Made by a program: the position numbers. From Puniceicoccales bacterium (GTDB taxonomy: Bacteria; Verrucomicrobiota; Verrucomicrobiia; Opitutales; JAIRLM01), in assembly GCA_031268535.1 (NCBI GenBank), contig JAIRXB010000006.1, positions 35,996 through 99,995 of the forward strand: a stretch of DNA of 64,000 nucleotides, written 5' to 3'. Shown piece after piece: positions 3,001-6,000 of this stretch; position 1 is the stretch's first letter; every line of letters begins with the position of its first letter.

Positions 3001-6000
3001 CTCTCATCGAAGGGACGCTACTGAGCCAAGCCTAGCACAATTATCAACCACGGCACGGCCTCTGGGAAGACCTCTCGCAGCAAAAGCCCGCCGCAATTGG
3101 GCATATAAGCCAACTTTATCAGGCTCGCCTATTTTTTATGGCCGAAATGCTTCCTGAGCAGGGCATTGGCGGCATTCAGCCGCTGAAACTTCTCCGTCGC
3201 TTCCGGTGTGTTACTATTTTTATCTGGATGCCACTTCAGCGCCTTTTCCTTAAAGGCGCGTTTCAACTTTTCCGAATCCATTGCATCCTCTTCCGATATG
3301 CCAATCACTTTGCACGCCTTATCTATTTCGTCCAGCGGCTGTGGCGCTGCACCTGGAAACCTGCCAAATCCGCCGGCGGAAGCCCCACGGGGAGCAGGAT
3401 CCGGCTGTGGCCGACCGCGGTAACCAAAAAAACCACCATTCTGAAAGAAGTCATCCCACAACCCATCAGCACCGAAAAAGCCTGTGCCACCGGTTGCCTG
3501 TCGGCCGGCCGAAGAACCTCCTCCAAACGACTGGCCGCCGCCGACACCGCTTGAACTCGCTCCGCCGCCATGCGGATGGCCGGCGCCGCCGGCCGGTGGG
3601 ATTCCGCTGCCACTGCCAGCTCCAGATGCAGATTGCCGCCATTGGCCATTAAAACCGCCGCCTCCGCCAGGATTCGCTCCGCCGCCGGCAGTTGGGGGAA
3701 TCCAGCTGCCGCCACTTGCTCCAGATCCAAATTGCCGCCACTGGCCACTAGAGCTGCCTCCAACACCACCGAATGGACCAGCGCCTCGACTGCCGGATCC
3801 CTCGGAGCTATGTGCGCAACCTTCTTCCCGTTTTTTTGTCCGTTCGGCCCCGGACAGACATGTGGCGTTGTCTTCGAAGGGAAATCCTGACACTCTAAAT
3901 CTTTCGCGCATTCTTCGCAGATCTTCTTCGCTGCTCCACACGCCACTGGCACGCACTCGTAACCCTCCTTGATTGTGCCGGTCTGTGCCGGTAACAATTC
4001 TGAAAACTTTATTATCTGAGGTAAACGAATCAAGATTGATATCCAGATATCCAGCTCCGCGCGAAGTCACGTCCAAACACTCGACTGACGCTCTTTTGAG
4101 AGTGATGTGGCGCACGTCTGCGCCAACAATAATAGTGCCAACGTCAGAACGAACCGTAATCTCGGTAACACCAGACAACGCCGACAGGTCAATGTCCTCC
4201 TGACGTTTGCAGGAAATTTCCACCGTGCGCATGCCGAGTTGGCTCAACTCCTCAATGGGGAACCCAATGCGCTCTCTTCCGCCAATTAGCACATCGCACG
4301 TCCCGCAGCGATGAATCGCAGTAATTACGCCGCAATCTGACGGCCCGCAGCTGCCGTCGGCAAGTGCCTTAGTCGCCCCTGTGTAGCCATTACGGACGGC
4401 CGACGCTACGGCAGCTACGTATGGATTCAGCCGCCCATTGTGGCCGGAAATGTCACCAATGTCAAAAAACATATACTTCAGCAGCAGCACCAGGCCAAAA
4501 CTAGCAATAACTACGAAATAGTACAGCGCCTGGCCGAAAGCACTATTCCTTAGTGCAACACCCCCGCCGCAGACACGCGCAACATCATTCTTAGTTGCTT
4601 CGGTGCATCTAGCGACATACCTGACGATCTCTTTGCCGCAAAGATATTCGGCAAACGGAGAGCAAAAAGGCTCAGTAGTCATAGAGCTGCGCACAGAAAG
4701 CGCGTAGCAGCTCGACGAACTCATCATGATGTCCAAATGACAAAATCCGGCCGTCTGTCAAGTGCGTTTTACGTGGCAATTCGTTTTTCGGAAGCGCACT
4801 AGAGAACGAATCCGTCCGGCAGCGTCGCGCCCTTTGGGACGCAAACTATGCCATCAACGACAATGCATTCGCAATTTACGTAGCCATTACCCTTGCCCTC
4901 CGGCGATAGCCGTACGCCATTTCCTATGCGCACGTTTTTGTCCAAAATGGCATTGGCTATGTAGCAATTTTCTCCAATGCCGCAGGGCACATCGCCGCAT
5001 CCATGGCGCCCGTCAAAAAAATCATTCCCCATGACGAGAACGTTTTCCAGTCGCGCCCCACGCCGAATCACGGAACATGGCCCAATGACGCAGCGATGCT
5101 GAGATGCGCCATCCATGGAGCAGCCGTCAGCCAACACGACCTGCTCCAGGGAGCAGCCGTTCACCTTTGATGCCGGCAGATAGCGCGGGGTTGTGAAAAT
5201 GGGCCGCTCCCCATTAAAAAAATCAAAGGGCGGCACGATGTCCGTTAGGGCAATGTTGGCGTCAAAAAACGACCGGATGGTGCCTATGTCCTCCCAGTAG
5301 TCGTCAAAAAGATGCGCGTGGAGATTGACTCCGTCGCGCAATAGACGCGGAATAACCTCCTTGCCGAAATCGTTTTCGCTGCCGGAAAGTGCTTCCCGCA
5401 GAGCGCCAAAGCGAAATATGTAATCCCCCATCGAAGCCAGGCAGTGCGGATCATTTGGCGGAAGCGGCAACCCGTGCCGCCTCGCTATGGCCGGACTAAT
5501 GTGGAGACGGCGGACTTCGGCTGCTCCGTTTGGCTTCTCGACGAAGCCCGTTATGCGCAGATTGCCGTCCAATTCGATGGCGCCAAAATTGCATATTTTC
5601 CACGAAGGCACCAATTTGGCCGCCACGGTCACGTCAGCTCCGCTCTCGAGGTGATCGTCCACCATGCGCATGAAATCCATGCGGTAGAGCTGGTCGCCCG
5701 CTAAAATTAGCACCAAATCATTATCGCCCAGAAGAAAATAGCTCAAATTCTTCCTTACGGCGTCCGCCGTCCCCTCGTACCAGGTTTGGTTTTGCCCGCA
5801 AACCAATTCTGCCGAAAGAACTTCGACAAATCCTCCGCCGAAGTGGTCGAAATTGTATGTGTCCCGCACGTGCCGATGGAGAGACCGCGTATGGTACTGC
5901 GTGAGAAGGTAAATGCGGTTAAACCCGGAATGTATGCAATTGCTGATGGCAATGTCCACAAGGCGATACTTTCCGCCGACCGGCACTGCCGGTTTGCAGC

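Follow-up and report, generated by a model that had tools for sequence, protein, structure and literature searches.

A membrane-anchored J-domain protein with an orphan beta-rich module, and its tandem copy, in a Puniceicoccales genome

J-domain proteins set where and on what Hsp70 acts, and new partner modules attached to a J-domain point to new chaperone-dependent processes. One such protein is encoded in a stretch of 64,000 nucleotides from a Puniceicoccales metagenome-assembled genome, or MAG (assembly GCA_031268535.1, 105-kb contig JAIRXB010000006.1, positions 35,996 to 99,995; the whole stretch is called the window below), and it raises the question of which Hsp70 is served, that of the bacterium or that of a host, and at which membrane. 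The gene, here gene A (3129..4736, minus strand), is an open reading frame (ORF) of 535 amino acids (aa) with a Pfam DnaJ domain; in NCBI it is MDR1435744.1, “J domain-containing protein”, modelled with 532 aa. Its product, a membrane-anchored member of class C of the J-domain proteins, probably brings an Hsp70, bacterial or host, to a membrane site. A paralog, gene B, lies next to it.

Architecture of the gene A protein

The J-domain was located at the C-terminal end (aa 471-535 plus the stop codon; 3129..3326, minus strand), where a preliminary description of this DNA had placed it, and it passed the profile search: PF00226 matched aa 477-528 with 46.1 bits (E 5.3e-12; cut-off, 27.8) and was the sole Pfam domain of the protein. 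J-domains in the PDB were matched as well. Between helices II and III the HPD motif was intact (aa 503-505, nt 3222-3230); helix II was strongly basic (KLKRAFKEKALKW), the helix III Phe was present in the alignment, and the protein ended 7 residues past helix III, helix IV being absent. The NCBIfam models for DnaJ, TopJ and DjlA aligned only about 50 J-domain residues and stayed far under their whole-protein cut-offs (about 36 bits vs. 377 for the DnaJ equivalog models), and no DnaJ_C or zinc-finger domain was matched by Pfam in gene A. Since PF00226 was above threshold, the HPD was present and the class A/B arrangement was absent, gene A was assigned, on its sequence, to the class C (type III) J-domain proteins. 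The best J-domain match in the PDB search was human DNAJC5 (6e-8, 34.9 bits), with E. coli DnaJ at about 22.7 bits, a ranking to be read as a hint only in a database dominated by human J-domains.

The J-domain was preceded by a Gly-rich linker, presumably disordered (aa 305-470; 3327..3824, minus strand), in which 55 of the 166 residues (33%) were Gly. Self-comparison revealed two tandem 33-aa GQWRQ...IPP..GG units in this linker (aa 331-363 and 364-396; 3549..3746, minus strand), identical at 18 of 33 residues, a score that none of 2000 shuffles reached; at the DNA level, 3584-3662 and 3680-3761 were 76% identical (self-blastn). Both the Gly-rich stretch and its two units had been described beforehand and were confirmed at these lengths. 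Nearer to the J-domain, aa 419-441 (3414..3482, minus strand) were read as a Gly/Phe-rich (G/F)-like motif, GFFGADGLWDDFFQNGGFFGYRG, similar to the [FW]D[DS]FF element found in the canonical DnaJ G/F region, the likeness being one of resemblance only. Class A/B DnaJ/Hsp40 proteins have in common with gene A an HPD J-domain and a Gly/Phe-rich segment (“SVFDSFFGE” in the DnaJ fragment P0010 vs. “GLWDDFFQNGGFFG” in gene A), but in gene A the order is inverted, and the zinc finger and the C-terminal substrate-binding domain are missing. The expression “inverted DnaJ order”, used in the preliminary description, is fair in this sense, the G/F-like segment being N-terminal to the J-domain. A long Gly/Gln/Pro-rich low-complexity stretch (GGNFGGNQDRRGGGQQSQWHFSGGRPQQSHGQQPHGQ) with a composition like that of the linker was also present in IF2 (6577..9216, minus strand; aa ~140-260), and disordered sequence of the G/Q/W type may be a habit of the source genome, not specific to the J-protein.

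At the opposite end of the protein, a 66-aa N-tail (aa 1-66; 4539..4736, minus strand), delimited by composition and by the alignment of A with B, was followed by the sole hydrophobic, putatively transmembrane (TM), helix (aa 67-91; 4464..4538, minus strand; Kyte-Doolittle hydropathy 2.08). One N-terminal TM helix had been proposed: the helix was indeed single, but it was internal, behind the tail, a position that sits less easily with an N-out topology of the DjlA type. Ser and Thr accounted for 40% of residues 2-26, the highest value among 57 putative genes of the window (runner-up, 28%), and the tail carried 7 Lys/Arg. The motifs common to the tails of A and B in the alignment were F28, C33-G34, I37-V38 and GGxVxLRNS. 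In the per-segment comparison the helix was the best-kept part of the two proteins (44% identity), and the lowest identity (27%) was found in the repeats of the core described below.

The charges on either side of the gene A helix, as read from the sequence, were balanced, and a C-in orientation is compatible with them. In both A and B the helix was flanked by a conserved Arg (that of LRNS) immediately on its N-terminal side and by conserved acidic residues immediately on its C-terminal side, a pattern by which N-in/C-out would be mildly favoured. An N-in/C-out signal anchor would suit an envelope or periplasm-facing protein, with the core, used for binding or adhesion, as its functional part and the J-domain as a decaying passenger; this alternative is taken up again with the evidence from gene B.

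The segment between helix and linker (aa 92-304; 3825..4463, minus strand) formed a beta-rich core in the AlphaFold models: a meander of three strands (aa 135-160) came first, then about four two-strand repeats of about 20 aa each (aa 168-253), with an alpha/beta cap at the end (aa 254-304). The model of aa 128-304, for which the input was a two-sequence alignment, reached a pLDDT of 74.6 and a pTM of 0.70; that of the entire N-terminal module (tail, helix and core) was poor (pLDDT 53.7). Repeats of about 20-22 residues, resembling leucine-rich repeats (LRR), had been suggested for this region. The repeats were recovered as the four or so two-strand units, but their LRR nature was unsupported by sequence and marginal by fold: no LRR family in Pfam matched gene A at E<=1, the PDB sequence-profile search with the core returned no LRR (only a chance match to SERINC3, E 0.84), the LxxLxLxxN consensus was not evident in the core, and Foldseek searches of the PDB with the core models gave nothing at E<=0.001. 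The LRR domains of LRIM1/APL1C were nevertheless the top Foldseek matches of both models (E 0.011-0.16, TM-score 0.22-0.39). LRR domains, whether of the YopM/IpaH class or of LRIM1, are built from repeats of about 20 aa with short beta-strands in a curved solenoid, as predicted for the core of gene A, which differs from them in having only about four repeats of two strands each and in these low scores. Gene A was accordingly not classed as an LRR protein, there being no profile match and a marginal fold resemblance; the models weakly suggest that “LRR-like” describes a faint resemblance of the core.

Searches for relatives led back to the same two genes. A word-indexed search of 5.8 billion clusters with the full-length protein was swamped by candidates matching the Gly-rich region, and the N-terminal module and the G/F-plus-J part were then searched apart; gene A itself was the only protein returned for the full length and for the N-terminal module, and gene A plus one generic DnaJ fragment were returned for the G/F-plus-J part. 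An exhaustive HMMER search of 1.84 billion representative proteins with the N-terminal module retrieved A, B and six repeat proteins (E down to 8e-25), four of them brown-algal proteins with Tudor repeats according to Pfam, one from Toxocara and one of 7,221 aa. The Tudor-repeat proteins were rejected as homologs, since only a motif of about 20 aa (HRxGTCD...) was held in common and was counted 8-15 times. The six matches were put down to chance similarity inflated by repeats; they provide no evidence for a eukaryotic origin. DNA-pattern scans of genome and metagenome collections yielded no relative of A or B, and the PADLOC (defence) and PHROGs (phage) profiles gave no match. Eighty loci were also fetched via relatives of GlgC, and none had a homolog of A, B or the J-domain within 10 kb of glgC; in the nearest of them, from the Puniceicoccales MAG Nm470_bin13, GlgC was 83% identical and glgC was the sole shared synteny.

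The N-terminal module can thus be described as an orphan, known from A and B only in the collections searched. The full combination (internal TM helix, orphan beta-solenoid-like core, GQWRQ units, G/F-like motif and C-terminal three-helix J-domain) was likewise seen nowhere else in these collections, to judge from sequence comparison. With the one qualification made above for the helix, and the other for the repeats, the overall anatomy given in the preliminary description was correct.

Gene B, the duplication and the rate of change

Gene B (1478..2428, minus strand; entry P0003 of the exhaustive search) encodes a paralog of 316 aa consisting of N-tail, TM helix and beta-core only. It aligned to aa 13-304 of A (BLASTP over about 300 aa, E 2e-29), with 30-31% protein identity. 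The earlier statement that this paralog retains no more than the membrane and repeat portions holds for the ORF, but the copy was full-length, and its J-domain has been inactivated just downstream, at 1281..1468 (minus strand), where it was detected by tblastn (E 2e-4) and by reading the DNA. Past its TAG stop the frame of B reads ...LLGLCEEDARDEK; a one-base shift (-1) in a run of six A (A6) then leads to KKIRDAFRKVARMCHPHKNSHKATATALFRMATAARDLL. With the frame repaired, the 65-aa relic scored 34.3 bits on Pfam DnaJ (E 2.5e-8), over the cut-off. Three lesions were present in it: the TAG stop, the A6 frameshift and a change of HPD to HPH, the Asp of HPD being needed for the stimulation of Hsp70.

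The A6 run lies at ~1405..1415 (minus strand), inside the relic, and seven A's would restore the frame. Poly-A tracts in some endosymbionts can be rescued by transcriptional slippage, but rescue of this relic is pointless, as the upstream TAG and the HPH would remain.

About 10 residues separated core and J relic on the B side vs. 166 in A, which implies either an expansion of the Gly-rich linker in A or its deletion from B. The origin of the pair was marked in the spacer between the two genes, where relics of both flanking genes were found by self-blastn. Upstream of B was a relic of the glgC 3' end (2466..2756, minus strand; 72% identical to 4786-5070), and downstream of A were relics of an acyltransferase gene (2758..3042, plus strand) in two pieces (2758-2833 vs. 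761-836, 84%; 2910-3042 vs. 1154-1281, 86%). Lying as they do in the A/B spacer, these relics mark the pair as the product of a tandem segmental duplication of about 2.3 kb ([~761..2756] vs. [~2758..5070]) with its junction at ~2757.

Assembly of a MAG from strain variants might produce a false tandem pair, and a frameshift in a homopolymer of six A might be a sequencing error; the source is a MAG and the A6 run is such a homopolymer. An artefact of this kind is nevertheless highly improbable here. DNA identity was 45% between the two copies and 72-86% for the relics, far past strain-level variation; the relics were incomplete pieces that had suffered internal deletions, and their junction at ~2757 was clean; and the J relic bore three independent lesions.

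One further piece of the spacer, a stray non-genic copy of the GQWRQ unit (2873..2916, minus strand), was detected by self-blastn and translation; it encodes SSGSSSGQWRQS, and its 44 bp were 84-91% identical to 3626-3669 and 3725-3758. It is placed about 210 bp past the stop codon of A, between the two acyltransferase relics, at a point where the relic lacks about 240 bp. Template switching or illegitimate recombination is a possible origin of this copy.

The two ORFs, both open, were much less alike (45% DNA identity) than the relics of the same duplication (72-86%). Substitution analysis by NG86 gave a dN of 0.82 for A vs. B and a dS of about 2, which is saturated. We conclude that A and B form a very fast-evolving family in which selection is still keeping the frames open; the rate claim rests on the contrast with the relics, where gene conversion is possible, and positive selection is not claimed. 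The partner module, for which searches of about 1.8 billion representative proteins detected no relative, is evolving more quickly than the neighbouring pseudogene relics, and the locus offers a compact and datable case of gene birth and decay: a duplication, the gain or loss of a linker and the death of a J-domain.

The G+C content at third codon positions (GC3) was 0.53 in A and 0.48 in B; across 56 ORFs of the window its median was 0.62, and the adjacent spacers had a G+C content of 0.49-0.54. Recent horizontal transfer was considered as the cause of the low GC3 of A and B and is not needed, since it equals that of the local non-coding DNA.

The periplasm-facing alternative introduced above would gain from this value near the non-coding level, as it would from the N-terminal module of B, intact beside a dead J-domain, and from the Arg and acidic residues around the helix. 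It was nonetheless considered improbable. The J-domain of A was well above the Pfam cut-off and had kept its HPD, basic helix II and helix III Phe despite the fast evolution around it, from which it can be argued that selection maintains the J-domain; moreover, a J-domain in the periplasm would have no known partner and no ATP supply.

Which Hsp70, and at which membrane

J-domains dock on ATP-bound Hsp70 and trigger ATP hydrolysis, upon which Hsp70 clamps onto a nearby client. In the mechanism proposed for the gene A protein, the beta-core would hold a partner at the membrane to which the protein is anchored by its helix, and the J-domain would load Hsp70 onto this partner. The Gly-rich tether would give the J-domain reach, and the G/F-like motif may modulate the Hsp70 cycle. 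By analogy with known systems, the protein could act like DjlA or Pam18, or like the effector HopI1, depending on the Hsp70 that it meets.

DjlA, of about 270 aa, begins with its membrane helix and has a TerB-like domain at its centre. It is like gene A in the combination of a single membrane helix with a C-terminal J-domain, the logic being that DnaK activity is localised to the membrane, and unlike it in two respects: in gene A the helix is placed behind a 66-aa tail, and the centre is occupied by the orphan beta-domain and the 166-aa Gly-rich linker. Gene A had been set apart from DjlA from the beginning, and this view was borne out, as no DjlA-like homologs surfaced and the DjlA model (NF006948) matched the J-domain part only (aa 468-506), with 17.6 bits vs. 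a cut-off of 162; gene A was rejected as a DjlA on this score. No TerB-like domain was matched by Pfam in gene A at E<=1. Tim14/Pam18 also combines a single-pass anchor with a C-terminal three-helix J-domain and positions Hsp70 at a membrane, and Plasmodium exports J-proteins into the host cell; Pam18 and the Hsp40s exported by parasites are organellar or eukaryotic, their non-J parts are unrelated to gene A, and they serve as analogies only.

A tether for the cell's own DnaK at the inner membrane, analogous to DjlA, would have the C-terminal part of the protein in the cytoplasm, the core binding a bacterial client and the J-domain loading DnaK onto it. We regard this as possible, though somewhat doubtful. 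It agrees with the presence of a TM helix, with a C-terminal J-domain whose HPD is intact and whose helix II is basic, with a G/F-like motif near the J-domain, as in DnaK co-chaperones, with the balanced charges around the helix, which allow C-in, and with the housekeeping neighbours and what is the default role of bacterial J-proteins. Many bacterial class C J-proteins have TM regions and partner domains of various kinds, and DjlA works with DnaK (PMC8215388). It agrees less well with the distance from DjlA, both in the score of the DjlA model and in the lack of a TerB-like domain, and with the topology, since N-out/C-in needs a 66-aa tail with 7 Lys/Arg to cross the membrane. The module had no homolog beyond the paralog in the protein and DNA searches described above, and none was seen beside glgC even in the relative with an 83% identical GlgC; it is only 31% identical between the tandem copies, which would be unexpected for a co-chaperone of a conserved bacterial client; and B has lost its J-domain, yet keeps a frame of 316 codons open. 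If gene A works with the cell's own DnaK, it is one more lineage-specific class C co-chaperone.

The closest plan among secreted proteins was that of HopI1, a type III effector of Pseudomonas syringae that recruits host Hsp70 at chloroplasts. In HopI1 an N-region of unknown function is followed by four disordered tandem repeats, each 27-38 aa long, and by a J-domain at the C-terminus; this J-domain binds the Hsp70 of the host, activates its ATPase and draws it to an organelle (PMC4617103). HopI1 and gene A follow the same three-part plan, the two being set side by side by described architecture and not by sequence. The HopI1 repeats are Pro/Gln-rich, those of gene A Gly/Ser-rich; neither a TM helix nor a beta-solenoid core is reported for HopI1 (PMC4617103), whereas gene A has both, the core being predicted; and HopI1 is secreted, whereas for gene A secretion is hypothetical. 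The exhaustive search with the N-terminal module, which gave no bacterial protein but A and B, argues against homology with HopI1.

A type III secretion system (T3SS) cassette had been noted in the same window. What was found is a translocon/chaperone operon (53655..56811, minus strand; profile matches and hydropathy), but apparatus genes were absent from the 64-kb window and the operon is about 50 kb from gene A. Its members were a SycD/LcrH-like tetratricopeptide repeat (TPR) chaperone of 217 aa (TIGR02552, E 4e-17, under the equivalog cut-off; Pfam TPR_3), a translocator-like protein of 406 aa with two hydrophobic segments, and a protein of 414 aa with an SseD-like C-terminus (E 1.4e-9). 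Five orphan ORFs of 141-902 aa (56771..63983, minus strand), without a match in Pfam or NCBIfam, were located upstream of the operon; they are possible effectors or needle-tip proteins, and the GC3 of these T3SS-linked ORFs was normal (0.61-0.64). To our knowledge, the T3SSs of Verrucomicrobia have been little studied.

A host-directed, HopI1-like effector was tentatively preferred for gene A, as slightly likelier than the tether for the cell's own DnaK, though short of an even chance. The protein would be exported, most plausibly as a type III substrate, would insert into a host membrane or the membrane enclosing the symbiont, and would recruit host Hsp70 there. The effector is favoured because of the orphan module, the extreme evolution, the duplication and decay, the translocon on the same contig, the Ser/Thr-rich N-terminus and the HopI1-like plan; fast family turnover, as seen in the tandem duplication, the divergence and the loss of the J-domain of B, is expected of host-interaction genes. 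The helix of gene A would be no bar in itself to type III export, since that of the secreted-translocator candidate was more hydrophobic (Kyte-Doolittle 2.69 vs. 2.08). The position of DNAJC5 as the best structure match may be taken as a weak hint of J-domain affinity in the same direction.

Several points weigh against such an effector. Export of the gene A protein is inferred, and the gene is placed amid housekeeping genes (glgC, rbfA, infB, nusA), with the translocon about 50 kb off, no secretion chaperone adjoining it and no injectisome seen within the 64-kb window, and the Ser/Thr-rich N-terminus is a compositional hint only. Most bacterial J-proteins work for their own DnaK, and both DjlA and Pam18, single-pass proteins with a C-terminal J-domain, act on the Hsp70 of their own cell. 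The low GC3 and the fast divergence could reflect a dispensable, weakly selected gene. Finally, the association of the source MAG with eukaryotic cells is read from its relatives: the names Nm470, Roe453 and Gsp477, borne by the MAGs of the nearest relatives, belong to gut metagenomes of lower termites (PMC11707648), and the “Nucleococcus cluster” comprises verrucomicrobial endosymbionts of termite-gut flagellates and ciliates (PMC8204192).

A more specific form of the effector proposal, and an unlikely one as it stands, is that a verrucomicrobial symbiont living with protists of the termite gut injects the gene A protein into its host, that the beta-solenoid module picks the target and that the tethered J-domain hijacks host Hsp70 at a host membrane. 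If this were true, J-domain effectors would no longer be confined to plant pathogens, gene A being the first exception and also the first effector described for a verrucomicrobial T3SS; its family would be diversifying as genes duplicate in tandem, repeats expand and domains are lost, with selection driven by the host. An effector role would in any case extend the HopI1 strategy to a very different symbiosis and give a first handle on the cargo of a verrucomicrobial T3SS.

Other features of the window

The window consisted mostly of housekeeping genes: glgC, rbfA, infB, nusA, rpoB-rpoC, a ribosomal-protein operon, secY, rpoA and a fusion of rpiB with the serine hydroxymethyltransferase gene. 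A scan for promoters and terminators between 1100 and 5300 gave counts at the level of shuffled sequence.

Two of these housekeeping loci were gene fusions. The rpoB and rpoC genes were joined in one ORF of 2653 aa (20712..28673, plus strand) without an internal stop, with Rpb2 at aa 20-1247, Rpb1 at aa 1283-2561 and a linker of about 35 aa (...LDVRLNRALSQPGDGGGAAANSTAAMEEREAKEILGIGQDNAFDS...) between them; fusions of rpoB and rpoC are known in Helicobacter and Wolbachia. The second, an ORF of 602 aa (49037..50845, minus strand), combined ribose-5-phosphate isomerase B (aa 42-176) with serine hydroxymethyltransferase (aa 189-567).

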